50,458 nt of DNA from Lachnospiraceae bacterium (lineage in GTDB: Bacteria > Bacteroidota > Bacteroidia > Flavobacteriales > Flavobacteriaceae): contig CAVBJB010000001.1 of assembly GCA_963595625.1 (NCBI GenBank), positions 1 to 50,458 on the forward strand, written 5' to 3'. Every line of letters starts with the position of its first letter. Position 1 is the stretch's first letter. Positions 1-49,933 of the stretch are shown here, piece by piece. Under the pieces are notes generated by a model. The model ran no database searches. It had not been told where the DNA came from and worked only from the letters and a program-made list of their open reading frames with translations. The position numbers and the translations under genes are program-made.

Positions 1-540
1 TTTTAGTGGTGGCTGAGGCTCTCGAAGCCACAAGCTAAAAGATACAGCGGAAAGCCGGATGGCGTACTTCGTGTAACGCTTGGATTTTATCGCTCCTATT
101 ATTATAATGTACAGATTATATACATAGCCCCGATTGAAGCGGCATCCTTTTAGTGGGGGCTGAGGCTCTCGAAGCCATAAACGAAAGGATATAGAGATAA
201 GCACCGAATGACGTACTTTGTGTAACGCTAAGATATTAACGCTACTATTAGCTTAATGCACATATTATATACATAGCCCCGATTGAAGCGGCATCCTTTT
301 GGTGGTGGCTGAGGCTCTCAAAGCCATAAACGAAAGGATATAGAGATAAGCCGAATGACGTAATTTGTGTAACGCTAAGATATTATCGCTACTATTAGCG
401 TAATGCACATATTATATACATAGCCCCGATTGCAGCGGCATCCTTTTAGTGGTGGCTGAGGCTCTCGAAGCCATAAACTAAAAGATATAGCGGAAAGCGG
501 GATGGCATACCTTGTGTAACGCTTGGATTTTAACGCTCCT
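1..540 (+). repeat. Tandem array of ~147-149 bp structured repeat units (about 3.6 copies visible, cut by the window start); each holds a Flavo-1-like core with a REP-like tip hairpin
   Basis: TAGCCCCGATTG(A/C)AGCGGCATCCTTTT recurs at 125, 274 and 421; GGCTGAGGCTCTC(G/A)AAGCC occurs four times; whole units align, so there are no unique spacers. Confidence 0.95.
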
Positions 541-544
541 AAAT

Positions 545-577
545 AAAAAAAACGGAATACTTATGTACTCCGTTTTT
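545..577 (-). terminator. Intrinsic terminator downstream of rpiB (probably bidirectional)
   Basis: AAAAACGGAATAC-TTAT-GTACTCCGTTTTT hairpin with A/T tracts, 3 bp from the rpiB stop. Confidence 0.75.
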
Positions 578-18095: not shown

Positions 18096-18113
18096 GCCCA
18101 AGCCTTTACTCTT

Positions 18114-18196
18114 AGCCCTGATAGAGCCGGTATCCTTTTTAAAAGATTTTTACGTTATGTATGTTGTCTTTTAAAAAGATAAAGGCGAAAGCAGGA
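18114..18196 (+). repeat. Solo Flavo-1-like structured element
   Basis: CCTG-ATAGA-GCC-GGT-ATCCTTTTT...AAAAAGAT-AAA-GGC-GAAAG-CAGG; same architecture as the units at 1-540 and 48034. Confidence 0.75.
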
Positions 18197-18272
18197 ACGA
18201 ACCAAAATTTTAAACCCAAATGTTAACTGCTTCTTAAAAAAATTAATTATATTTATGTAAACACTTGTAATT

Positions 18273-37751: not shown

Positions 37752-37976
37752 ATGAAGACGTTAGATACTTTAGCTGTGAATCAAAAAGCTATAATTTTAG
37801 ATTTTAAAGAATCTGAAATTCCTTTAAAATTAGTAGAAATGGGATGTTACCCGGGTAGTGAAGTTAAGGTGATTAAAAAATCACTTTTTGGATGTCCTAT
37901 CTATTTAAAAATTAACGACACGTATTTAAGCATACGTAAAGATTTAGCTAAAGAAATTTCAATTGAAATAAAATAA
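37752..37976 (+). CDS. feoA: Ferrous iron transport protein A
   Basis: KLVEMGCYPG..GCPI..LSIRK; directly upstream of feoB. Confidence 0.9.
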   Translation: MKTLDTLAVNQKAIILDFKESEIPLKLVEMGCYPGSEVKVIKKSLFGCPIYLKINDTYLSIRKDLAKEISIEIK

Positions 37977-37978
37977 AA

Positions 37979-40021
37979 ATGAGTACACCCATAAAAGTAG
38001 CACTTATTGGAAATCCAAACGTTGGTAAAACTTCCATTTTTAATACGTTAACGGGATTAAATCAAAAAGTTGGAAACTATCCCGGAATTACAGTAGAGAA
38101 AAAATCGGGGATTTGTAAGTTAGACGAAAATACAAAGGCAACTATTATAGATTTACCAGGAACCTATTCTATAAACCCAACATCTATAGACGAGGAGGTA
38201 GCCTTAAAAATTTTAGTAGACCAAAATTCAACTGAGAAACCTGATGTTGTACTTGTAGTTGCAGAGGTTGAAAATTTAAAAAGAAACTTGCTTTTATTTT
38301 CACAAGTTAAAGATTTAGGTTTTCCAACTCTTTTAATCATCAATATGGCAGACCGTATGGAAACAAACGGTATTGCAATAGATGTTGCACAATTAGAAAA
38401 ACAATTAAACACAAAAGTTATACTTGTATCGGTAAAAAAGAATCAAGGATTTACAGAATTAAAACAAGCTATAAAATCTTATCAAAGTTTAAATACAACG
38501 CCCTTTTTTAATATCACACAATTAAGCACTGAAGCTGAAAAAATAGATGATTACAGAAACTGGCTTATAAAAACTCAGGAAAACGATAAAAAAGAAGTAC
38601 CTGATACGGATCTAAAAAAGATTCAGCATAAGGAAACTATAAAACGTTTCCAATTAATAAATTCTGTTTTAAAAGAAACTTATACTAAAGATACGAGCAA
38701 AGCCACAGGATTACGTTATAAATTAGATGCTATACTAACACATAAATTTTGGGGATATGTAATATTTTTCGGAATTATGCTTTTAGTTTTCCAATCTATT
38801 TTTGAGTGGTCTAGCATCCCGATGGATTTTATTGATGCATCATTTGGAAGCTTAACTGATACGTTAAAAGAAATATTACCCGCAGGTAAACTAACGGATT
38901 TGTTAACTGATGGTCTAATTTCAGGAATCAACGGAGTCGTAATCTTTATCCCTCAAATTGCCATTTTGTTTCTTTTTATTTCTATTTTGGAAGAAACAGG
39001 CTATATGAGTAGAGTCGTATTTTTAATGGATCGAGTAATGAGACCTTTTGGCTTAAACGGAAAATCTATTGTTCCTTTAATTTCAGGTACCGCATGTGCA
39101 ATTCCGGCCATTATGTCTGCACGTAATATTGAAGATACAAAAGAGCGATTAATTACCATGTTAATCACGCCATTTACAACATGTTCAGCTCGTATACCGG
39201 TTTATGTAATCATTATATCTTTAGTAATTCCAGATGATAGAGTTTTAGGTATATTTACTTACCAATCCTTAACCATGACACTTTTATATTTGTTAGGTTT
39301 TTTAGCAGCTATACTATCTGGTTGGATACTAAGTAAATTTATTAAAACAGACCGCAAAAGTTATTTTGTGGCTGAAATGCCAGAATATCGTAAACCTATA
39401 GCTAAAAATGTAGCATTTAATGTTTGGGATAAAACCAAAGCCTTTGTATTTGGCGCTGGTAAAATTATATTACCACTTTCTATACTACTTTGGTTTTTAG
39501 GAACTCACGGAACTTCAAATTTTGATAATGCTGAGGAGATTATACAAACTCAATACGCGACTCAAAATTTAACTGAAGAAGTTTTAAACGATAAAATTGC
39601 AGCTTTCCAGCTAGAAAATTCTTACATGGGTAAAATCGGTAAGTTTATAGAACCTGCCGTTGCGCCTTTAGGTTTTGACTGGAAAATTGGTATTGCTGTT
39701 ATTACTTCATTTTCTGCAAGAGAAGTATTTGTAGGAACACTAGCAACCATATATAATATAGGAAGTCATGCAGATGATGAAGATTTTACGCTGATAAAAG
39801 ATATTATGATGAACGAGAAAAGACCCGATGGTTCTCCAGTATTTACACTTGCCACGGGTGTTTCAATTTTATTATTTTACGCTTTTGCTATGCAATGTAT
39901 GTCCACCATTGCAATTATTAAAAAAGAAACAAATTCTTTAAAATGGACTATATATCAAGCTATAGGTATGACCTCTTTTGCATATTTAGTATCCTTAATT
40001 GCTTATCAAATTTTAAAATAA
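37979..40021 (+). CDS. feoB: Ferrous iron transport protein B
   Basis: GNPNVGKT, GNYPGITVE, DLPG, NMAD, LEETGYMSR, CSARIP, AREV. Confidence 0.96.
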   Translation: MSTPIKVALIGNPNVGKTSIFNTLTGLNQKVGNYPGITVEKKSGICKLDENTKATIIDLPGTYSINPTSIDEEVALKILVDQNSTEKPDVVLVVAEVENLKRNLLLFSQVKDLGFPTLLIINMADRMETNGIAIDVAQLEKQLNTKVILVSVKKNQGFTELKQAIKSYQSLNTTPFFNITQLSTEAEKIDDYRNWLIKTQENDKKEVPDTDLKKIQHKETIKRFQLINSVLKETYTKDTSKATGLRYKLDAILTHKFWGYVIFFGIMLLVFQSIFEWSSIPMDFIDASFGSLTDTLKEILPAGKLTDLLTDGLISGINGVVIFIPQIAILFLFISILEETGYMSRVVFLMDRVMRPFGLNGKSIVPLISGTACAIPAIMSARNIEDTKERLITMLITPFTTCSARIPVYVIIISLVIPDDRVLGIFTYQSLTMTLLYLLGFLAAILSGWILSKFIKTDRKSYFVAEMPEYRKPIAKNVAFNVWDKTKAFVFGAGKIILPLSILLWFLGTHGTSNFDNAEEIIQTQYATQNLTEEVLNDKIAAFQLENSYMGKIGKFIEPAVAPLGFDWKIGIAVITSFSAREVFVGTLATIYNIGSHADDEDFTLIKDIMMNEKRPDGSPVFTLATGVSILLFYAFAMQCMSTIAIIKKETNSLKWTIYQAIGMTSFAYLVSLIAYQILK

Positions 40022-40028
40022 TTACGTT

Positions 40029-40157
40029 ATGGATTTACAAAGTATACTCGCATACAGTATTGTTGGTATAACTGCTGTATATCTTATATATAAGAAAATT
40101 TTTAAAAAGAAGAAAAATAACAACGACTGCGATTCGAACTGCGGTTGCGGAAAATAA
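40029..40157 (+). CDS. FeoB-associated Cys-rich membrane protein (42 aa; absent from the ORF track)
   Basis: MDLQSILAYSIVGITAVYLIYKKIFKKKKNNNDCDSNCGCGK: one TM, Lys run, C-x3-C-x-C; 7 bp after feoB and followed by a terminator. Confidence 0.88.
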   Translation: MDLQSILAYSIVGITAVYLIYKKIFKKKKNNNDCDSNCGCGK

Positions 40158-40186
40158 AAAAAAGGCTGTGTTAAACAGCCTTTTTT
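40158..40186 (+). terminator. Terminator of the feo operon
   Basis: AAAAAAGGCTGT-GTTAA-ACAGCCTTTTTT. Confidence 0.85.
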
Positions 40187-40242
40187 ATTTTTAATTTCAT
40201 TTTTATTAACGTTATTTTGCAAAATATTTAATTTTAACCCTA

Positions 40243-41016
40243 ATGAAATATTTTTCAGTCTATATAACTTTAATAGTAACCTTGTTGTTTTTTGCATGTA
40301 GTAATGACGATTATGCTAACAGAAACTCATTACAAGATTTTGATTATGTATTAGTAGCATCCTCAACAAAACAAACTCCCAACCATACATATACTACAAC
40401 TTACCACTATACAGATTATAAATTAAACCGAATTAATTATAGTATAGACAACAGTTACGATATTTATACCTATACAAACGATCTAATAACCCAAATTGAG
40501 CATTTTAATACAGAAGGTGTAATTACGGAAAGAACTGTTTTTGAATACAACTCAAACAAAGATTTGGTAAGAGAATCGAGTCAAGAGGTTAGAAACGATC
40601 ATGTATTAACTTTTGAGTATGACTATACTTATGTTGATAATAAAACGATAAAAGTTGAATTTAGCTCTCAGGCTGAAAATGGTGTAGTGTATGAATTTGA
40701 AAAGATTATAAATTTAAAAGATCAAGAGATTTTAAATACCGTTTATACATTAAACAATTACACAACAAGTTTTACCTATGACGTGGCTAAAAATCCGTTT
40801 AAAAATATTGAAGGCTATCGTAAATTATATATTAGCGAATATTTTGGTGAAAAAGGTAATTTAAGAAATGTACTAAGCAAAGCTTACGGAAACAAAAAAA
40901 TTGAAAATTTTTATCGTTACAATGTAGAGAATTATCCAACAGAAATTATTGAAAAAAGCTACGAAAACAACACTTTAAAAGATACTGAAATCATTACTTT
41001 TGAGTATGTACAATAA
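40243..41016 (+). CDS. Hypothetical Tyr-rich lipoprotein (YD-like beta-strand repeats)
   Basis: Lipobox FFAC-SNDD, periodic Y-x-Y motifs, FTYD..KNPF. Confidence 0.75.
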   Translation: MKYFSVYITLIVTLLFFACSNDDYANRNSLQDFDYVLVASSTKQTPNHTYTTTYHYTDYKLNRINYSIDNSYDIYTYTNDLITQIEHFNTEGVITERTVFEYNSNKDLVRESSQEVRNDHVLTFEYDYTYVDNKTIKVEFSSQAENGVVYEFEKIINLKDQEILNTVYTLNNYTTSFTYDVAKNPFKNIEGYRKLYISEYFGEKGNLRNVLSKAYGNKKIENFYRYNVENYPTEIIEKSYENNTLKDTEIITFEYVQ

Positions 41017-41020
41017 ATAG

Positions 41021-41055
41021 AAAACGGCTGATGAATTTCATCAGCCGTTTTTTTT
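41021..41055. terminator. Bidirectional terminator between convergent lipoprotein genes
   Basis: AAAACGGCTGATGA-ATT-TCATCAGCCGTTTT. Confidence 0.85.
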
Positions 41056-41497
41056 ATTCGTTATCCTGTGCTACTATTGTTACTTTGTAATCCTGTAAGG
41101 TTAATGGCTCTTTACCAATTTCATTAACTGCAGAACTGTTTATTATTTTATAGATATACTTAGAGTTATTTGTGTCTAAAAAAGAATTTACCCAATCTAG
41201 ATCTGCTGGTGAAACGTTTGTTAAATCTAACGTACGTTCTCCAATACGTGTATTGTCTTGGTAAGCTCCTAGCTTAACTACTAATTTACCTTCCCAAACG
41301 CATTTTGCATTGATTGGACATCTAGAATCCTCGATAACTTCAAATATTTTAAAAGGATGTGTTGCTGCATCTACAATTTTTTGTTTTGTAATTTTTTCTC
41401 CGTTTAGGTTTGTAAAAGTCTCGGTTTTAGACTTTGTAGTGTTGCACGAAAAATTTAAAATAAGGGTAGCTATGATTAGGTTTCTTATAATCTTCAT
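41054..41497 (-). CDS. Hypothetical lipoprotein with a DSRCP-x4-CVWEG motif
   Basis: Lipobox NFSC; EDSRCPINAKCVWEG. Confidence 0.8.
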   Translation of the reverse strand: MKIIRNLIIATLILNFSCNTTKSKTETFTNLNGEKITKQKIVDAATHPFKIFEVIEDSRCPINAKCVWEGKLVVKLGAYQDNTRIGERTLDLTNVSPADLDWVNSFLDTNNSKYIYKIINSSAVNEIGKEPLTLQDYKVTIVAQDNE

Positions 41498-41552
41498 GAT
41501 TAAACAGCTATTGGTTTTAATTAAAGATACTAAATTTTATTTTACGCGGAGC

Positions 41553-41672
41553 GCGTTAGCGATGGAAGCCTTGTTTGAGCTCCTTTTTATGTAATGTAAT
41601 GGAATAAAAAGAGCGAGGGCGTACAGCGCGACCTGTAAAAAACGACGGTAGGAGTTTTTGTGCAGGGAACGC
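41553..41672 (+). repeat. 120-bp structured repeat, copy A (three-way-junction form)
   Basis: Near-identical inverted copy at 45513-45632; shares outer stem and third hairpin with 48034-48157. Confidence 0.9.
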
Positions 41673-41681
41673 CAAAGGTAC

Positions 41682-42503
41682 TTATCCTAAGGCTACGTCG
41701 AGCATCATCATAACCACAAAACCGGCTATTAAACCTAGGGTGGCAATGTCGTTGTGTCCGTTTTGTTGGGTTTCTGGGATTACCTCCTCTACAACAACAA
41801 AGATCATGGCTCCGGCTGCAAAGGCTAGGGCATAGGGTAAAATAGGGGTAAAAAACGCTACCGATAGTGCTCCTAAAACTCCGGCAACGGGCTCTACTAA
41901 GGCTGATGCTTGGCCGTAAATAAAACTTTTTTTACGGCTCATACCCATACGTCGTAGCGGCATGGCTACTGCGATACCTTCTGGGAGATTTTGTAAACCA
42001 ATTCCTATAGCTAATGTTACAGCTCCGGCTATGGTTGCCTCTGGGATTCCGGCTGCAACACCACCAAAAAGTACACCTACTGCTAATCCCTCGGGGATGT
42101 TGTGCAGGGTTATGGCTAATACTAAAAGGGTTGTTTTTTGCCATCCCGATTTTACACCTTCGGCAGTGGTTTCGTCGTGGTTTAAATGCAAATGCGGAAG
42201 TAATTTATCTAATGCAAATAAAAATAAAGCTCCGGCTAAAAAGCCCAAAGCGGCTGGTGTTACTTTTGCAAATCCTTCTCCTGGTGACATGTTGATGGCG
42301 GGTGCCAATAAGCTCCAAAAGCTAGCAGCTATCATAACTCCGCCGGTAAAACCTAACATTCCGTCAAGCACCGTTTGGTTTAATTTTTTAAAAAACAAAA
42401 CCGTTGAGGCTCCTAATGCGGTTAAAAACCATGTAAAAAGTGTAGCGTATAAAGCAGCTAAAACGGGTGATATGCTGGAAAAATATGCGATTATTTGGTC
42501 CAT
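41682..42503 (-). CDS. ZIP (ZupT/GufA-like) divalent metal transporter
   Basis: LHNIPEGLAVG, QNLPEG, AAGAMIFVV.EE.IPE, His loop PHLHLNH. Confidence 0.93.
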   Translation of the reverse strand: MDQIIAYFSSISPVLAALYATLFTWFLTALGASTVLFFKKLNQTVLDGMLGFTGGVMIAASFWSLLAPAINMSPGEGFAKVTPAALGFLAGALFLFALDKLLPHLHLNHDETTAEGVKSGWQKTTLLVLAITLHNIPEGLAVGVLFGGVAAGIPEATIAGAVTLAIGIGLQNLPEGIAVAMPLRRMGMSRKKSFIYGQASALVEPVAGVLGALSVAFFTPILPYALAFAAGAMIFVVVEEVIPETQQNGHNDIATLGLIAGFVVMMMLDVALG

Positions 42504-43150
42504 TATTTTACGTATAAGTTAGAGGCTATTTTATTGGAAAGCATAAGTTCTTGATTGTTAAAGTGTATGGTTAAAGACAAATCAAAATCTTCTTTATGCG
42601 TTACTGTTATTTCTGTTCCTAAAGCTATGTTATACTTATTAAGGTATTGCAAAAATTCGGACGATGTATCTTTAACGCCTACGCAAATTAGTTTGGTTTG
42701 AAGGGGCGCATCAGACAATAAAAACTTCTCGATCTTTATGATCTCACCGTTTCTATCCGGGATTGGATCTCCATGCGGGTCATGCGTTGGGAATCCTAAA
42801 AACTCGTCTAACCTGTTAAACAATTGCTCGGATTTTATATGCTCTAAATCCTCTGCAACTGCGTGTACCTCATCCCAAGAAAACTTGAGTTTATCAACTA
42901 AAAACACTTCCCATAAACGGTGTTTTCTGATAATCATTTTGGCTTCACGCTGGCCAAGGTCTGTTATTTTTACTCCTTGGTAACGCTGGTAATCAATTAA
43001 ATTTTTGTCTGCCAGTTTTTTTATCATATCGGTAACTGACGAGGCTTTGGTTACCATTGTTTCTGCAATAGCGTTTGTTGTTACACCTTTAGGTGATGCT
43101 TGGTATAGGTGATATATAACTTTTAGGTAATTCTCTTCGGACTGGGTCAT
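42503..43150 (-). CDS. mntR: DtxR/MntR-family metal-dependent repressor with a C-terminal FeoA domain
   Basis: SEENYLK, RKHRLWEVFL, AEDLEH, DPHGDPIP. Confidence 0.9.
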   Translation of the reverse strand: MTQSEENYLKVIYHLYQASPKGVTTNAIAETMVTKASSVTDMIKKLADKNLIDYQRYQGVKITDLGQREAKMIIRKHRLWEVFLVDKLKFSWDEVHAVAEDLEHIKSEQLFNRLDEFLGFPTHDPHGDPIPDRNGEIIKIEKFLLSDAPLQTKLICVGVKDTSSEFLQYLNKYNIALGTEITVTHKEDFDLSLTIHFNNQELMLSNKIASNLYVK

Positions 43151-43197
43151 TCTATTTAATTTTAAACAAATATAATCTTTTTTATTTCAAAAAATAT

Positions 43198-43215
43198 TTT
43201 TAGGTTTGTCTAAAA
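43198..43215. promoter_or_regulatory. DtxR/MntR-type operator TTTTAG-GTTTGT-CTAAAA between divergent mntR and TBDR
   Basis: Inverted repeat resembling DtxR-family TTAGG..CCTAA boxes, next to the mntR TATATTTG element at 43167-43174 (minus strand). Confidence 0.7.
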
Positions 43216-43240
43216 TATAAAAAAGATAAATCTAAAGTAA

Positions 43241-45484
43241 ATGAAAATCAATTATATACTCCTTTTATTGTTTTTGATATCCTATACTATAAATGCACAA
43301 AGTCAAATTTCCGGAACCGTACAATTTGATAAACAACCCCTACAGTATGCAGAAGTTTATTTGGATGATCAACAAAAAGTTACAAATGAGACGGGAAAAT
43401 ACAGTTTTAAAAATTTAAAATCGGGGCCTTATACCTTATCGGTTCGCTTTATTGGTTTTAAAACCATTACAAAAAAAATTGTGCTTAAAGAAAATCAAGA
43501 ACTTATAGCAAATTTTGAGTTAGAGGAAGAAATATTAGACGAGGTTGTGGTTTCTGCAACCATGAGAAATGTCAGCAGAATTGATAGCCCAATGCCTGTG
43601 GATATAATTAGCAAGCAATTTTTCTTAAAAAATCCTACGGCTAATATTTTTGAGGGTTTGCAAAACGTAAATGGAGTTAAACCTCAAATAAATTGTAGTG
43701 TATGTAATACAGGGGATATACATATTAACGGGTTAGAGGGACCTTATACCATGATTTTAATAGACGGGATGCCCATTGTTAGTGGTCTTTCTACTGTTTA
43801 TGGATTGTCTGGAATTCCTAATTCGTTAATAGAAAGGGTCGAAATTGTAAAAGGTCCTGCATCCTCATTGTATGGATCAGAAGCTATTGGAGGGTTAATT
43901 AATGTTATCACTAAGGATCCTTTAAAGGCGCCTCGTTTTTCGGCAGATATTTTTTCTACCTCTTGGGCCGAGACTAATTTAGATCTAGGTTACACCACTA
44001 AAGTGGGCAAGTTTGCAAACGTTTTAACTGGTGTAAATGCCTTTTATTACGACACACCTATAGATAACAACAACGATAATTTTACAGATTTAACCTTACA
44101 AAAAAGAGCCTCAGTTTTCCAGAAATGGGATTTTAAACGCAAATCAGGTAAAGCATTTTCTATAGCCGGGCGCTATTTTTATGAGGACCGCTGGGGCGGA
44201 GAAATGCAATGGAACAAAACATATAGGGGAGGAGATGTTGTATACGGAGAAAGTATATATACCAACAGGTACGAGGTTTTAGGAACCTATGAGTTTAATA
44301 CCCAATTCCCAATTAAAGCAAACTTTTCGTACACCAACCACGATCAAAACTCAGTGTATGGTACCACTCGTTACTTAGCAAAGCAAAACATTGCTTTTGG
44401 GCAATTTATACACAACAAACAATATGGTAAAAACGAGGTTTTAATAGGAACCGCGTTAAGATATAATTATTACAACGACAATACCACCGCAACACTAAAG
44501 GCAGACAAATACATTATGCCTAGTATTTTTGTACAAAACGATTATCAACTTAGTACCAAACAAAATATACTATTAGGAGCCCGTTACGATTATAATTCCA
44601 ATCACGGCAACATATTTACGCCACGCATAGCCTATAGATACAAATTCACAGATTTTGATGTATTTAGAATAAATGCAGGAACGGGATTTAGAGTTGTAAA
44701 CCTATTTACAGAAGATCATGCAGCCTTAACCGGAGCCCGAGAAGTTATAATTGTAGATCAATTAAAGCCAGAAAAATCATATAATATAAATCTAAATTAC
44801 CTAAAAAAAATATACGGAGATACAGGTAATTATTACAGCCTGGAGGCTAGTGCATGGTACACCCATTTTACAAACTCTATCATCCCAGATTACGACACCA
44901 ATCCTAATCAAATTATTTATGACAATTTAAAAGGGAAAGCCGTATCTAAAGGGATTAGTTTAAATGCTGACGCCACATTTACAAACGGTCTTAAAACCAT
45001 GCTTGGCGTAACATTTATGGATGTAAACAAAACCGAAAACGGAAATACAACCCGCCAAATGTTAACCGAGCAATTTACCGGAACCTGGACCATAAGCTAC
45101 GACATACCCAAAACAAAAATAAGTATAGACTACACCGGTAACCTTTACGGAGGCATGCGTTTACCCACTCTTGGCCCTCTAGATCCGCGTAGATCCTATT
45201 CCAAACCGTTCTCCATACAAAACATACAAGTAACCTACAAAGGTTTAAAAAATCTTGAATTTTATGGCGGGGTAAAAAACCTTTTAAATTGGACCGTAAA
45301 CAAAGGCAATCCGTTTGTCATTGCCCGATCTCATGACCCGTTTGATCGTGGCGTGGATTTTGACACTAACGGAAACGCCATCCCAACACCAACCAACCCG
45401 TACGGCCTAACTTTTGATCCTACGTATAGCTACGGCACCAATCAAGGCATACGCGGCTTTGTAGGACTTAGATACACCTTATAA
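43241..45484 (+). CDS. TonB-dependent receptor (N-terminal CarboxypepD-like domain), probably metal uptake
   Basis: Signal peptide, LDEVVVSA TonB box, IERVEIVKGPASSLYGSEAIGG plug motif, C-terminal GLRYTL. Confidence 0.92.
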   Translation: MKINYILLLLFLISYTINAQSQISGTVQFDKQPLQYAEVYLDDQQKVTNETGKYSFKNLKSGPYTLSVRFIGFKTITKKIVLKENQELIANFELEEEILDEVVVSATMRNVSRIDSPMPVDIISKQFFLKNPTANIFEGLQNVNGVKPQINCSVCNTGDIHINGLEGPYTMILIDGMPIVSGLSTVYGLSGIPNSLIERVEIVKGPASSLYGSEAIGGLINVITKDPLKAPRFSADIFSTSWAETNLDLGYTTKVGKFANVLTGVNAFYYDTPIDNNNDNFTDLTLQKRASVFQKWDFKRKSGKAFSIAGRYFYEDRWGGEMQWNKTYRGGDVVYGESIYTNRYEVLGTYEFNTQFPIKANFSYTNHDQNSVYGTTRYLAKQNIAFGQFIHNKQYGKNEVLIGTALRYNYYNDNTTATLKADKYIMPSIFVQNDYQLSTKQNILLGARYDYNSNHGNIFTPRIAYRYKFTDFDVFRINAGTGFRVVNLFTEDHAALTGAREVIIVDQLKPEKSYNINLNYLKKIYGDTGNYYSLEASAWYTHFTNSIIPDYDTNPNQIIYDNLKGKAVSKGISLNADATFTNGLKTMLGVTFMDVNKTENGNTTRQMLTEQFTGTWTISYDIPKTKISIDYTGNLYGGMRLPTLGPLDPRRSYSKPFSIQNIQVTYKGLKNLEFYGGVKNLLNWTVNKGNPFVIARSHDPFDRGVDFDTNGNAIPTPTNPYGLTFDPTYSYGTNQGIRGFVGLRYTL

Positions 45485-45512
45485 AACTAGTTTAAACTAA
45501 CTAATAATTTGG

Positions 45513-45632
45513 GCATTCCGCTACAAAAACTCCTACCGTCGTTTTTTAGCGGTCGCGCTTTTCGCACTCGCTCTTTTTACTCCATTACATTACATAAAAA
45601 GGAGCTCAAACAAATGCTACAATCGCTAATGC
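45513..45632 (-). repeat. 120-bp structured repeat, copy B (inverted relative to copy A)
   Basis: Reverse complement aligns end to end with 41553-41672. Confidence 0.9.
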
Positions 45633-45636
45633 AAAT

Positions 45637-45668
45637 AAAAAAGGCTGTCTATAAAGACAGCCTTTTTT
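45637..45668. terminator. Bidirectional terminator
   Basis: AAAAAAGGCTGTCT-ATAA-AGACAGCCTTTTTT. Confidence 0.85.
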
Positions 45669-45670
45669 AT

Positions 45671-46429
45671 TTATTTTTTAATGAATTTTAGAGATCCTTT
45701 ATTTTCTAATGAAATCAAATAAACTCCACTTTGTAATTCTTGTGTTATAATTTGCTGATTCACATCAACACTTCCTTTTTTAACCTTACTACCTAGAGTA
45801 TTATAAATCTCATATTTTGTAGGTTTGTCAATTGCCTTAACTTGTATATAATCTCGGGCTGGATTTGGATAAATACTGATTTGACTATGTTTTTCCAACG
45901 AATCTATGGAAAGCGTGTTACCGCAATCTAATCCTAAATAATAATTTCCTATACCGCCTATGCCTCCAGTTGAAAATAAAAAGTTAGATGCATTATCAGG
46001 AATTATATCTCCAAAATTTAAATAATAAGCATAAACTACACTATTAGCATCAAATTCTTTATTAATATGTATATCTGATTCTTCAAATACAGCCATAATC
46101 CAGTAATCTCCAGGTGATAATAACGTAGGAGTTACTGATAATGAAACCTCTCCAGATAGTACATTACCAATAATACTAGAAACAATTAAATTATTAGGAG
46201 CCCCATTATTGTCTGAATATAGCGCCATTTGAACTCTACTATTAGTACCATTACCAATTAAATTTAAAGATCTTAAAGTACTTTCTTGACTTAATGACAG
46301 CTTAAATCCAGAAATTACATTTGAATGAGTAATATTTTGAACGGTACAATTTTTATAGCCTAAATCACAATTTTGACCCTGACAAATTAATGTTAATAAA
46401 AGCGTGAATAATAAGTAAATTTTTTTCAT
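45671..46429 (-). CDS. Small T9SS type A sorting-domain secreted protein
   Basis: MKKIY signal peptide; C-terminal IYPNP...IYNTLG...LQSGVYLI...KFIKK. Confidence 0.9.
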   Translation of the reverse strand: MKKIYLLFTLLLTLICQGQNCDLGYKNCTVQNITHSNVISGFKLSLSQESTLRSLNLIGNGTNSRVQMALYSDNNGAPNNLIVSSIIGNVLSGEVSLSVTPTLLSPGDYWIMAVFEESDIHINKEFDANSVVYAYYLNFGDIIPDNASNFLFSTGGIGGIGNYYLGLDCGNTLSIDSLEKHSQISIYPNPARDYIQVKAIDKPTKYEIYNTLGSKVKKGSVDVNQQIITQELQSGVYLISLENKGSLKFIKK

Positions 46430-46565
46430 AATAAGAATTTTTTAGATATGAAAACCTAACGAATCCTTAACAAAATTGAATATTTCTTAAATCATTAATT
46501 CGTTTAAATGAATATTAAAATAGATATATATACCATTTAAGACATTTTTCTTGTTAAAACTCAAC

Positions 46566-47171
46566 TTACTTTTTATAGTACGAAGTGTTTTTAAAATCTT
46601 TTATTAAACGTTTATATGTTTTGTTTAATATTTTTTTGGAGTTACTCGAAAAGTTAATTTTATTATCATCAATTCCTCTGCTTGCTGTTCCTGTAATTTT
46701 TTGGTTGTAAACCTCCTCTAACGTATTTAAATCGTAAACCACCATAGCAAAATAACTTTGGTTGGATTCTTCCATTTCAATCTGTCTCATACTGTTATCA
46801 AACCCCACAGAACCTAATTTATTAGAAACTTCTTTACCACGCATCAATATTAAATAGTCTTGCTGAGTTGCAATTTTTAAACTTTTTAAAGTCTCTTTAG
46901 ATACGGGTAAAGTTAACTGCATAGGGAAACCCATGTTGTTAGCTCGAGGGAAATAGGTAAAGCGAGAGTCAAAAATAGCTGTAAAATCCTGAATGGCTAA
47001 GGTTTCAAAATCATAATGATAGGCTTTGGCAGCATCTAATTTATATAACAACCAGTTACCAGATGTAAAATCCAATTGTCCTTTGGCATAGCTGTTTTCT
47101 TTTAAAATACTTGTCATTGAACAGGCAGATAATAAAAGGGCGGAAAGGAGTAGAAGTAGGGCTTTTTTCAT
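46566..47171 (-). CDS. Hypothetical lipoprotein
   Basis: Lipobox LSAC; 201-aa ORF. Confidence 0.75.
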   Translation of the reverse strand: MKKALLLLLSALLLSACSMTSILKENSYAKGQLDFTSGNWLLYKLDAAKAYHYDFETLAIQDFTAIFDSRFTYFPRANNMGFPMQLTLPVSKETLKSLKIATQQDYLILMRGKEVSNKLGSVGFDNSMRQIEMEESNQSYFAMVVYDLNTLEEVYNQKITGTASRGIDDNKINFSSNSKKILNKTYKRLIKDFKNTSYYKK

Positions 47172-47222
47172 AATTTTAATTAATGGGATAATTTTTATGA
47201 AAGATAGCGATTAATCTAAAAC

Positions 47223-47254
47223 AAAAAAACCTCCAGATTACTCTGAAGGTTTTT
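47223..47254 (-). terminator. Terminator downstream of tRNA-Cys
   Basis: AAAAAAACCTCCAGA-TTAC-TCTGAAGGTTTTT. Confidence 0.75.
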
Positions 47255-47255
47255 G

Positions 47256-47326
47256 AGGCATCTAGCGGATTCGAACCGCTGTTGACGGTTTTGCAGACCG
47301 CTTCCTAGCCACTCGGACAAGATGCC
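47256..47326 (-). tRNA. tRNA-Cys (GCA), CCA not encoded
   Basis: Minus strand GGCATCT/AGATGCC acceptor stem with U discriminator, GCGGT-CTGCAAA-ACCGT anticodon arm, AGCGG-TTCGAAT-CCGCT T arm. Confidence 0.96.
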
Positions 47327-47402
47327 CTTTGTTATTTCGACTGCAAATATAGGACTGTTTTTTTAAAAACCAAACAGTTTATTGGTAAAAATCGGAATAA
47401 AA

Positions 47403-47759
47403 TTAACGTGTTTGCTCTAAAACAACTGTAACTCGCTCAACATCACCACCAATAGGAGGATTAATTTTTGATACTTCAACCAAAGTTTTTTCTACTAGAG
47501 GAATTTCAGCTAAAATACGAGTGTTGATTCGTTTGGCAACATGCTCTAATAATTTAGAACGAATAGCCATTTCCTCGCAAACAATTTTGTTTAAATGTAC
47601 GTAATCAACCGTATCAATTAACTCGTCCGTATCACACGATTGCGAAAAATCGGCATGAATTTCTAAATCTACTGAATAGTCTGAACCTATTTTACTTTCC
47701 TCAACCAAGCAGCCGTGGTTAGAGAAAATTCGAATATTTTTTAAACGGATGATTCCCAT
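47403..47759 (-). CDS. folB: Dihydroneopterin aldolase
   Basis: NHGCLVEE, DTVDY, LLEHVA, KINPP. Confidence 0.94.
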   Translation of the reverse strand: MGIIRLKNIRIFSNHGCLVEESKIGSDYSVDLEIHADFSQSCDTDELIDTVDYVHLNKIVCEEMAIRSKLLEHVAKRINTRILAEIPLVEKTLVEVSKINPPIGGDVERVTVVLEQTR

Positions 47760-47810
47760 TTTGTATTAATTATTGTTTTTAAGTAAGCCAAAGGTAAGGA
47801 TTTTTATATA

Positions 47811-48027
47811 TAAGATAAGAGATTGAGATGTTAGATTTAAAGTTGTTAGATATTAAGGTTTAAGTTATAAGGCTTAAGTTATAAGACTTAAGTTATAAGG
47901 TAGAATTTTTTGTTATTAGTATTTAATGATATTCTCTTTTATCTTTACTCTTTTATCTTTACTCTTTTATCTTTACTCTTTACTCTTTTCTCTTTTCTCT
48001 TTTTTCTGACTTCTGACTTCTGATCTC
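47811..48027. repeat. Two opposed tracts of degenerate 7-bp tandem repeats
   Basis: Left arm GGTTTAA/GTTATAA/GGCTTAA/GTTATAA/GACTTAA/GTTATAA; right arm (TCTTTTA TCTTTAC)x3, TCTTTTC x2, TCTGACT x2. Confidence 0.85.
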
Positions 48028-48033
48028 TTTTTT

Positions 48034-48157
48034 GCATGAGGGATAGAGGCGGTATCCTTTGGTTTAAAATGGAGTTTACGGAATTTTTAAAACCAAAGAT
48101 TAAGCCGAAAGCCCGACCTATAAAAAACGACGGTAGGAGTTTTTGTATAGGGCATGC
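48034..48157 (+). repeat. Structured repeat copy C (Flavo-1-like core inside the three-way-junction frame)
   Basis: GCATG-A-GGG-ATAGA-GGC-GGT-ATCCTTTGG...CCAAAGAT-TAA-GCC-GAAAG-CCC-GA-CCTATA...TATAGG-G-CATGC. Confidence 0.85.
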
Positions 48158-48247: not shown

Positions 48248-49933
48248 ATGTCGACAAAAGAAAAATCATTGAATTTCATAGAACAAATCATTGAAGAGGA
48301 TTTAAAAAATGGTTTGTCACAAGATAAATTACGTTTTCGTTTTCCGCCGGAACCTAATGGGTATTTACACGTTGGGCACGCATCGTCTATTTGCTTAAAC
48401 TTTGGTTTAGGTTTGGATTATAAGGCGCCGGTTAATTTACGTTTTGATGATACAAACCCTGCTAAAGAGGAGCAAGAGTTTGTGGATGCTATTAAACGTG
48501 ATGTGGAATGGTTAGGTTTTACGTGGGACCAAGAGGTTTACGCGTCTGACTATTTTCAGGAATTATACGATTGGGCGGTTCTTTTAATTAAAAAAGGAAA
48601 AGCATATGTTGATAATTTAAGTGCTGAGGAAATTGCAAAACAAAAGGGTACACCGACGCAACCGGGGGTGAATTCGCCAAACAGAGACCGATCTGTAGAG
48701 GAGAATTTAGATTTATTTGAAAGAATGAAAAACGGTGAATTTGCTGAGGGTGAATATATTTTACGTGCTAAGATTGATATGGCATCGCCAAACATGTTAA
48801 TGCGTGATCCTATTATGTACCGTATTATTAATGCGAGCCACCACAGAACTGGAAATGACTGGAAAATTTACCCAATGTACGACTGGGCACATGGGGAATC
48901 TGATTATATTGAACAAATTTCGCACTCGTTTTGTACGTTGGAGTTTTTACCTCACCGTGAATTATATGATTGGTTTTTAGATCAGATTTTTGACGAAAAT
49001 AAAGTGAGACCAAAACAACGTGAGTTTGCTAGACGTAACTTATCGCACACGGTTGTATCTAAACGTAAATTATTACAATTAGTTAACGAAGGGCATGTTA
49101 CGGGTTGGGATGATCCACGTATGAGCACAATTTCTGGTATGCGCCGTAGAGGTTATACGCCTGCTGCTATTCGAAATTTTGCTGAAACTATTGGTATTGC
49201 TAAACGTACCAACTTAATTGACGTGAGTTTACTTGAGTTTTGTGTGCGTGAGGATTTAAATAAAATTACGGATCGTGTAATGGCTGTTTTAGACCCAGTT
49301 AAATTAGTGATTACGAATTATCCTGTAGGTCAAGAAGAGTGGTTAGAGGCAGAAAATAATCCGGAAGCTGAGGAGTTAACGTTTAGAAAGGTTCCTTTTT
49401 CTAGAGAATTATATATTGAAAGAGAAGACTTTTTAGAGGAAGCGAACAGCAAGTTCTTCCGTTTAACTTTAGGAAAAGAGGTTCGTTTAAAAAATGCTTA
49501 CATTATTAAAGGTGAAAGCGTTGTTAAGGACGAAAATGGTAACATTACTGAGATTCATGTAACGTATGATGCAGATTCTAGATCGGGTAGTGGTACTGAG
49601 GCGTCTAAACGTAAAGTAAAAGGAACGATACACTGGGTGTCTATCCCGCATGCTGTTGAGGCTGAGGTTAGAATTTACGACCGTTTATTTACGCATGAAA
49701 ATCCGGACGGAAATAAAGAAGTAGATTTTAAAGAATTTATTAATCCTGATTCTTTAAAAGTGATTACAGGTTTTGTTGAGCCTAGTTTAAAAACGGCTAA
49801 GGATGGAGATAAATTCCAGTTTCAACGTTTAGGTTATTTTGCAGTAGACAAAGATACCACTGAGGATAAACTTGTATTTAATAAAACAGTTGGTTTACGT
49901 GATACGTGGGCTAAGGTTGAAAGTAAAGAATAA
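48248..49933 (+). CDS. glnS: Glutamine--tRNA ligase
   Basis: [48 protein letters not shown]. Confidence 0.96.

Follow-up and report, generated by a model that had tools for sequence, protein, structure and literature searches.

A branched long form of the Flavo-1 motif in a Flavobacteriaceae genome and in small phages and plasmids: a possible single-strand initiation signal

Introduction

The DNA analysed here (the window) is a stretch of 50,458 nucleotides (nt), positions 1 to 50,458 of contig CAVBJB010000001.1 in assembly GCA_963595625.1, which is labelled Lachnospiraceae bacterium and is placed by GTDB in the Flavobacteriaceae. The window carries three copies, A, B and C, of a structured repeat that is an extended form of the Flavo-1 motif (RF01705), together with shorter and weaker Flavo-1 matches. 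Copy A stands between two genes without a Pfam family and a ZIP transporter gene, copy B between the genes of a TonB-dependent receptor and a type IX-secreted protein, and copy C in the spacer between folB and glnS. The assembly, hereafter the source genome, is that of a Flavobacterium, the genus name borne by relatives that carry this repeat; it comprises 2.27 Mb in 404 contigs and is 85% complete.

Flavo-1 has been known since 2010, without an assigned function (PMC2864571), and the accessible passages of the literature on it give none. Among bacterial families of 'small RNA' it is listed as one of the most abundant (PMC9029176). Titles, abstracts and accessible passages make no link between Flavo-1 and priming on single-stranded DNA (ssDNA) or a mutational footprint, subscription papers (including the original work on single-strand initiation signals) and the text supplement of 2010 being outside our reach. 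New here are the DNA-type hairpin tips of the element, its pattern of occurrence in ssDNA phages and plasmids, its outward-pointing pairs, a base bias on its 3' side, and their reading as the marks of a priming signal. The evidence suggests that the element likely acts as folded DNA, and that it is likely a signal for strand synthesis rather than a small RNA, because it is present in ssDNA phages and conjugative plasmids and is accompanied by a one-sided base bias.

Results

Three long-form copies and their surroundings

The coordinates, strands and outer-stem ends of copies A, B and C (Table 1) are those given in an earlier note made from the sequence alone, which had proposed a three-way junction with a Flavo-1 core. 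Copy C confirms the core, exceeding the Rfam gathering score of 42 bits; copies A and B score below it, though they share the signature of the arm. As the earlier note had supposed, the outer stem and third hairpin lie beyond the model: RF01705 covers the middle arm only, and part of the 2010 alignment stops 8 nt past that arm (PMC2864571). With RNA parameters the indicated strands fold as a three-way junction (z-scores of -1.63, -3.56 and -2.89 for A, B and C), while with DNA parameters they reach -20.3, -19.2 and -20.2 kcal/mol, against -12.6, -15.8 and -16.9 kcal/mol for the opposite strands.

In the sibling species G325, the orthologue of copy A has double changes in two stems, the orthologue of copy B is present, and the second stem of copy C is GCG/CGC where the window has GGG/CCC. 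The flank-to-flank gap is 1596 nt at copy A in the source genome and 710 nt in the sibling, and 1161 nt against 252 nt at copy B. Copy C was not seen, on inspection by eye, in any of 26 folB-glnS spacers of other species. Copy A is in place in a close strain recovered from sequencing runs (one contig, 17 differences in 519 nt); the four DNA sequencing runs gave no usable presence or absence joint for the window copies.

Table 1. Positions of the Flavo-1 elements and adjacent genes in the window, and of related features in other genomes and phage contigs
Feature	Location	Strand	Remarks
Copy A, long-form Flavo-1 three-way junction	41553..41672	+	Outer stem GCGTT/AACGC
Copy A, outer stem	41553-41557/41668-41672		
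Copy A, middle arm	41559-41629		
Copy A, third hairpin	41632-41666		
5' leader mini-hairpin preceding copy A	41546..41552	+	GC-GNA-GC type
Copy B, long-form junction	45513..45632	-	Outer stem GCATT/AATGC; directly behind terminator-like hairpin with T run
Copy C, long-form junction	48034..48157	+	Outer stem GCATG/CATGC; folB-glnS spacer; RF01705, 44.7 bits
Short-form Flavo-1 (middle arm only)	418..508	+	Rfam, 61 bits
Short-form Flavo-1	18110..18202	+	Rfam, 57.4 bits
Weak Flavo-1 match, under gathering score	271..361	+	35.8 bits
ZIP transporter gene, 3' of copy A	41682..42503	-	Four-fold sites, element strand: G38 C10 T59 A37
TonB-dependent receptor gene, 3' of copy B	43241..45484	+	Four-fold sites, element strand: G80 C34 T97 A85
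glnS, 3' of copy C	48248..49933	+	Four-fold sites, element strand: G50 C3 T106 A39
Two genes without Pfam family, 5' side of copy A	40243..41497		
Type IX-secreted protein gene, 5' side of copy B	45671..46429	-	
rRNA operons bracketed by Flavo-1 copies	G008:C1 132928-139144, 3973718-3979925, 5230503-5236719, 1789670-1795809		
Phage gene of 530-570 amino acids	L034:3199-4908, L190:3264-4976, L193:5090-6703, L201:1579-3243		No Pfam family

Several features of these surroundings were recorded in passing. Immediately 5' of copy C (47950-48030) are runs of short degenerate repeats (TTTTATCTTTACTC, TTCTGAC), and similar heptamer runs fill the folB-glnS spacer in many relatives; in three species (L015, L027, L030) this spacer holds a related insert of about 500 nt that appears by eye to be toxin-antitoxin-like. 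Around short-form copies (e.g. window 418-560), GTGTAATG-like words stand about 20 nt away to either side, and about 45 nt downstream these copies end in AACGCTCC-like words, an echo of the long-form 3' end without the closing stem. Positions 37752-43150 form a metal-uptake cluster, with FeoA/FeoB-like genes (by eye), the ZIP transporter and a DtxR-type regulator, beside the TonB receptor.

Covariation and internal structure

A parse of the source genome that was blind to pairing yielded 161 long-form copies, in 21 of which the 3' strand of the outer stem was not located. In 137 of the other 140 copies the outer stem pairs perfectly, and minority types of that stem pair in 35 of 36 cases, where shuffling gives a mean of 1.6 and a maximum of 8. 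Likewise, the second stem is perfect in 155/161 (shuffle mean 72.5), as are two pairs within the internal loop in 154/161 (shuffle mean 51). The covariation first noticed among three paralogues is far above chance, and the earlier suggestion of selection on a one-strand fold is borne out. An alignment of 33 sequences from genomes, phages and plasmids, selected because they fit the structure, has 92.7% of its cells paired, and 12 of its 19 pairs are altered on both sides.

The internal loop combines a sheared A-G pair and two further pairs with a GNA/GNA zipper whose middle bases are free; readings as a K-turn or loop E were dropped, since GNA with a free middle base occurs on both strands. The element also has a G-T wobble on one strand, a conserved bulge and an outer stem containing GTT/AAC, and a 5' GC-GNA-GC leader precedes 33 of the 161 copies. 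The third-loop sequence, which the earlier note took to be invariant, is instead a marker of subfamily or lineage: it has 42 exact matches in the source genome and none in 300 other genomes of the genus, and occurs also in the sibling species G325 and once in G326. Third hairpins otherwise span from 8 to more than 60 nt, and a metagenome scan with the third-loop pattern returned seven matches, none inside an element; the third loop is not a conserved functional motif.

Abundance, arrangement and persistence

Merged matches to a hidden Markov model and to a sequence pattern define 271 elements in the source genome (201 long form, 45 short form and 25 unclassified), and at least 145 Flavo-1 matches were found with Rfam when 150 of 613 candidates were scored. 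Copy number is very uneven, with 108 pattern matches in the source genome against 0-20 in 36 relatives. When 34 candidates were scored per genome, the chromosomal long form was found in 9/9 sampled genomes of the family and in 2/111 others in the phylum.

Convergent spacers are preferred, holding 72 of 147 placed long-form copies although they make up 99 of 557 spacers; the remaining copies are antisense (37), sense (28) or between divergent genes (10). All 29 pairs that lie less than 600 nt apart with no gene between them are inverted doublets whose 5' ends face one another, so that both members point outward, and no close pair is in tandem on the same strand. Among 23 pairs that enclose one gene, 13 are outward, 5 inward and 5 same-strand, and the single genes enclosed are assorted. 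In one complete genome (G008), four ribosomal RNA (rRNA) operons have a long-form copy immediately behind the 5S gene and, about 6 kb upstream of that copy, an outward Flavo-1 copy (Table 1); outward copies are also seen upstream of rRNA operons in G020 (C1 1573707 and 2356967). Elsewhere, three same-strand copies about 1-1.3 kb apart surround duplicated small genes (L036, G032:C55, 2755-5123), near what by eye is a DNA polymerase IV or error-prone polymerase cluster. In two source-genome contigs (G000 C189:1561-1934 and C221:2758-3134) the 213-nt spacer that separates the long-form and short-form members of an outward pair is identical, the whole composite having been duplicated together.

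Comparison with the sibling involved 90 of its elements, for which synteny held on both flanks in 21, on one flank only in 64 and on neither in 5. All 21 loci with two-flank synteny are filled in the source genome, in the same orientation, and none is a clean empty site. In 30 orthologous pairs, from which 16 further pairs that were unparsed or of another class are excluded, there are 246 conserved base pairs, 14 with both sides altered, 3 that became wobbles and 7 that are broken, and the middle bases of the zipper differ in 41/60. The 3' flank is better conserved than the 5' flank (23 vs 8 discordant of 67, p 0.011). Since 21 matched 3' flanks carry no element in the source genome, some turnover of copies has occurred. 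There is no excess of flanking repeats indicative of target duplication in 136 copies. Hence, the copies behave like sites that are kept in place, with some turnover. Long-form copies also occupy the same loci in different species, with gene names assigned by eye: behind trpB (L061, L065, L068), before an aminopeptidase gene (L038, L041, L042) and between lepA and dusB (L046, L059).

Partner genes of the kind suggested in the earlier note did not emerge. The Y1 transposase family (PF01797) has no match in the source genome, the sibling G325, G031 or G032, all incomplete assemblies; GIY-YIG domains occur in the source genome and G325 only in frames of at least 277 amino acids, small genes of this kind existing in G029 and G032. 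The search for partners covered these two families. No nuclease-like neighbour recurs at 43 loci, as judged from BLAST clusters and N-termini without a profile scan, and no integrase lies beside the copies examined at these loci.

Copies in small phages and plasmids

BLAST searches of phages and plasmids with the window copies were uninformative. Scanning viral contigs with a sequence pattern led to an inovirus-like provirus (L035/L188), which encodes Zot, Rep and integrase according to Pfam and has a full copy in its intergenic region; this shorter copy was the sole BLAST query to reach mobile elements, small phages included. It has partial matches in 212 plasmid records, 168 of them conjugative, and full junctions are present in 3/3 plasmids inspected: Bacteroides p5482, a Vibrio plasmid and an Escherichia coli IncN plasmid. 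In the IncN plasmid the copy lies behind stbABC, on the strand bearing a nic-like motif.

Full intergenic copies occur in five microviruses (L221, L227 (MG945248), L228 (MZ089795), L229 and L205) and three inoviruses (L188, L222 and L218). The copy in L205 (1673-1734, minus strand) is minimal, at about 50 nt, and finds no additional phage by BLAST. The element is on the coding strand in 6/8 of these phages (three microviruses and three inoviruses) and antisense in two microviruses, L227 and L228. The coding strand of these two is A-rich at four-fold sites, with T/(T+A) of 0.42 and 0.23, mirroring phiX174 (0.87), and the composition suggests that they may package the non-coding strand. The element is on the T-richer strand in 5/5 microviruses. 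In several double-stranded DNA phage contigs an antisense element lies directly behind a gene of 530-570 amino acids (Table 1); by eye this gene resembles a terminase, though in 4/4 it belongs to no Pfam family.

Base bias on the 3' side

The first gene 3' of a single long-form copy is G- and T-rich at four-fold sites of the element strand in 115/138 cases, and the same is true of 25/30 short-form copies; the bias holds for sense and antisense genes alike. At four-fold sites more than 3 kb away from any other element, the G excess in successive 500-nt bins 3' of the element is +0.23, +0.20, +0.14, +0.10, +0.06, +0.05 and +0.01, fading over about 2.5 kb to zero by 3 kb; on the 5' side it is +0.14 and then +0.05. 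By contrast, G excess is flat around 244 anchors in element-free spacers. Counted by contig, the 3' bias agrees in 142/153, and the profile recurs in the sibling and at loci of other species, with the four rRNA loci left out.

The bias is mainly A-to-G on the element strand (G at two-fold sites 0.31 vs 0.16), mirrored in antisense genes (C 0.48 vs 0.28), with a small C deficit besides. Divergence from the sibling suggests that the A-to-G rate is raised about 1.4 to 1.7-fold, an estimate that assumes equilibrium and is made near saturation. In mismatch-repair-deficient E. coli, A:T transitions are biased 2.44-fold towards A on the lagging-strand template, and G:C transitions likewise towards C (10.1101/346874); the element footprint matches the A:T half of these biases alone.

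Replication direction was considered in the complete genome G008, with replichores assigned from 5S orientation. The bias is about 0.10 over background both along and against the fork, with 12/14 elements positive along it and 12/21 against; ordinary Okazaki priming thus cannot be the whole cause. The proposition that elements follow the replication fork (141/201) was rejected, the count falling to 94/165 once two flanking genes were excluded, and about equal numbers of 42 chosen copies run along and against the fork in G008. Autocorrelation of gene-level GC skew in the source genome is lost within three genes (rho 0.26, 0.13, 0.04); this draft thus shows no long skew of its replichores, and that of G008 is weak (+0.035/-0.06).

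DNA or RNA

Which nucleic acid carries the fold was left open by the earlier note; the evidence here favours ssDNA, and the element likely folds in that form. Its tips have the module GNA, two pairs, GNA loop, two pairs, GNA, in which the pairs covary: GNA triloops with covarying 2-bp stems make up 32/40 zipper-flanked tips, and only 3/23 GNNA tetraloops are GNRA. GNA triloops are stable in DNA rather than in RNA. Human satellite III DNA has a solved fold of this kind, in which a GNA/GNA zipper is combined with A-T pairs, sheared G-A pairs and a GGA loop (PMC11014236). The element is also independent of transcript sense, occurring in both sense and antisense contexts, and a transcriptome study describes Flavo-1 matches as sense or antisense indistinctly, many being untranscribed (PMC9723704). 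A linear count of sigma-A boxes shows no excess on either strand (14 vs 13 of 136).

Discussion

We propose that long-form Flavo-1 is a single-strand initiation signal at which the host helicase or primase is loaded, and give this a probability of roughly one half. Under this proposal, the replication machinery would load at the element on ssDNA and move 5' to 3' along the folded strand, which would be copied as a lagging-strand type of template. The reader could be PriA-DnaB-DnaG, or primase or RNA polymerase alone. Exposure by a gap, R-loop, D-loop or incoming strand would presumably cause chromosomal copies to fire, giving forks or fill-in tracts that are expected to be short; an outward pair would provide each strand of the enclosed DNA with a signal at its 3' end. 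Location in ssDNA phages and in the leading region of a plasmid, together with a bias resembling that of lagging templates and running 5' to 3', is what a helicase or primase loading site predicts.

PriA-dependent primosome assembly sites (phiX174 pas; ColE1 ssiA/ssiB) are folded ssDNA signals in a microvirus intergenic region or on a displaced plasmid strand (PMC5778457, PMC3167613, PMC9865509), and have the same predicted polarity. The phiX174 F-G spacer also contains, by eye, GNA-GC-GG and a GC-GAA-GC mini-hairpin like those of the element; however, the element is a three-way junction with hundreds of chromosomal copies, and its relation to PriA is putative. Other single-strand initiation (ssi) or single-strand origin (sso) signals, such as the G4 primase origin, Frpo and RSF1010 ssiA/ssiB, share its leading-region or intergenic position; the two RSF1010 sites are a pair on opposite strands, and Nomura reportedly described eleven ssi signals in 1991. 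The general role of such signals is described in PMC7690428. The plasmid motifs ARRPOF, GEBRO and PAGEV, 223-349 nt long, were likewise found as 'RNA' motifs, although a role as ssDNA in the replication of plasmids has been proposed for them (Weinberg et al. 2017, PMC5737381); none of them matched at E up to 1 in seven phage and plasmid loci scanned. Compared with the Flavo-1 RNA motif of Weinberg et al. (2010, PMC2864571), whose Rfam model is the shared middle arm, the long form is extended by a closing stem and a third hairpin, and often by a 5' mini-hairpin; it occurs on mobile elements in Vibrio, E. coli and Bacteroides, and the evidence on it points to DNA.

A number of observations weigh against the proposal of an initiation signal. 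The covariance model, run without filters, has no match in phiX174 or G4, and its best score in ColE1 is 8.1 bits (E 9.1); the element therefore does not resemble the signals of these three replicons, the G4-type primase origin included. The priA gene was not found over the cut-off in the 85% complete source genome, although it is present in 5/5 relatives. The footprint also accompanies elements opposing the main fork of G008 (pooled about +0.10; 12/21 positive), a weaker bias exists on the 5' side (63/86 contigs), loci in double-stranded DNA phages show no clear bias, and C-to-T on the element strand is not raised, though lagging templates have that bias. Virion strands were assigned from composition, the inovirus L222 (T/(T+A) 0.36) breaks the T-rich rule, and the plasmids inspected are 3 of 212 matches. 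Moreover, the proposal does not explain how copies multiplied in chromosomes or how their strand is exposed there.

Alternatively, the element may be an ssDNA recognition site for a nicking enzyme, with a RAYT-, Ssn- or relaxase-like protein as candidate. Its nick would initiate either displacement of a strand or patch repair on the 3' side, and would also spread the element with its 5' neighbours. A nick would account for a fork-independent footprint equally well as an initiation signal does, there is a precedent (PMC11893778), and high, uneven copy number, paired inverted copies as in REPINs and a less conserved 5' flank are all in keeping with it. Indeed, REP/REPIN-RAYT and SRM/NTS-Ssn systems are likewise high-copy intergenic hairpins with inverted doublets and a preference for convergent spacers, but Flavo-1 has no cognate enzyme that we could find (neither Y1 transposase nor small GIY-YIG gene in the incomplete assemblies of the source genome and the sibling, nor a recurrent nuclease-like neighbour at 43 loci), is stable between species and single-copy in phages, and has a larger, branched fold. 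Neither target duplication nor clean empty sites were seen (136 copies; 0/21 loci), which also distinguishes it from miniature inverted-repeat transposable elements, and a phage of 4.5-7 kb would gain little by keeping a nuclease target. On balance we consider nicking rather unlikely. A site of recombination or attachment that works as folded ssDNA (attC- or IMEX-like), serving gene capture and phage integration, is improbable: outward pairs around single assorted genes (13/23), extra genes on the 5' side of copies A and B, the conserved bulge and the GTT/AAC-containing outer stem recall such sites, whereas the tandem same-strand arrays of integron cassettes are missing in the source genome (0/29 close pairs; 5 of 23 one-gene pairs same-strand), the order of the core is the reverse of attC, no integrase adjoins the copies examined, and 2.5 kb of base bias is left unexplained.

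That Flavo-1 is a structured RNA, either a trans-acting small RNA as filed in Rfam (type 'Gene; sRNA') or a transcript-end structure, seems more improbable still. Strong covariation, a G-T wobble on one strand and RNA folding z-scores down to -3.6 are what such an RNA would show; against these stand some 270 copies, triloops and non-GNRA tetraloops, more antisense than sense copies among co-oriented genes (37 vs 28), the lack of sigma-A box excess on either strand, and a transcriptome study that reports no strand or transcript link (PMC9723704). We give slightly less credence yet to passive repeats, whose pairing is maintained by hairpin-templated correction and which settle beside genes that are already skewed. 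Template-switch repair can perfect hairpins without selection, and the 21 matched 3' flanks without an element attest to turnover, but mismatched loops are retained while stems covary, the bias falls off smoothly away from the element while element-free spacers lack it, and single copies persist in compact phage genomes.

Returning to the initiation signal, a broader version, which we advance tentatively and consider possible but doubtful, is that Flavo-1 represents a class of ssDNA replication-start signals that spans phyla, occurring singly in small phages and plasmids but amplified to hundreds of chromosomal copies in Flavobacteriaceae, each copy starting short local synthesis often enough to rewrite base composition over 2-3 kb. 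Outward pairs around rRNA operons or single genes would then be sites of bidirectional restart or fill-in.

Should Flavo-1 prove to be a signal for DNA priming, a large family in Rfam would be misfiled, and many microviruses of Bacteroidota type, inoviruses and conjugative plasmids would gain a candidate origin for complementary-strand synthesis. The minimal copy of about 50 nt makes testing cheap. It would also follow that a non-coding element shapes mutation in neighbouring genes in a strand-specific manner. The footprint matters whatever its mechanism, because analyses of codon bias and skew in these genomes can be distorted by it.

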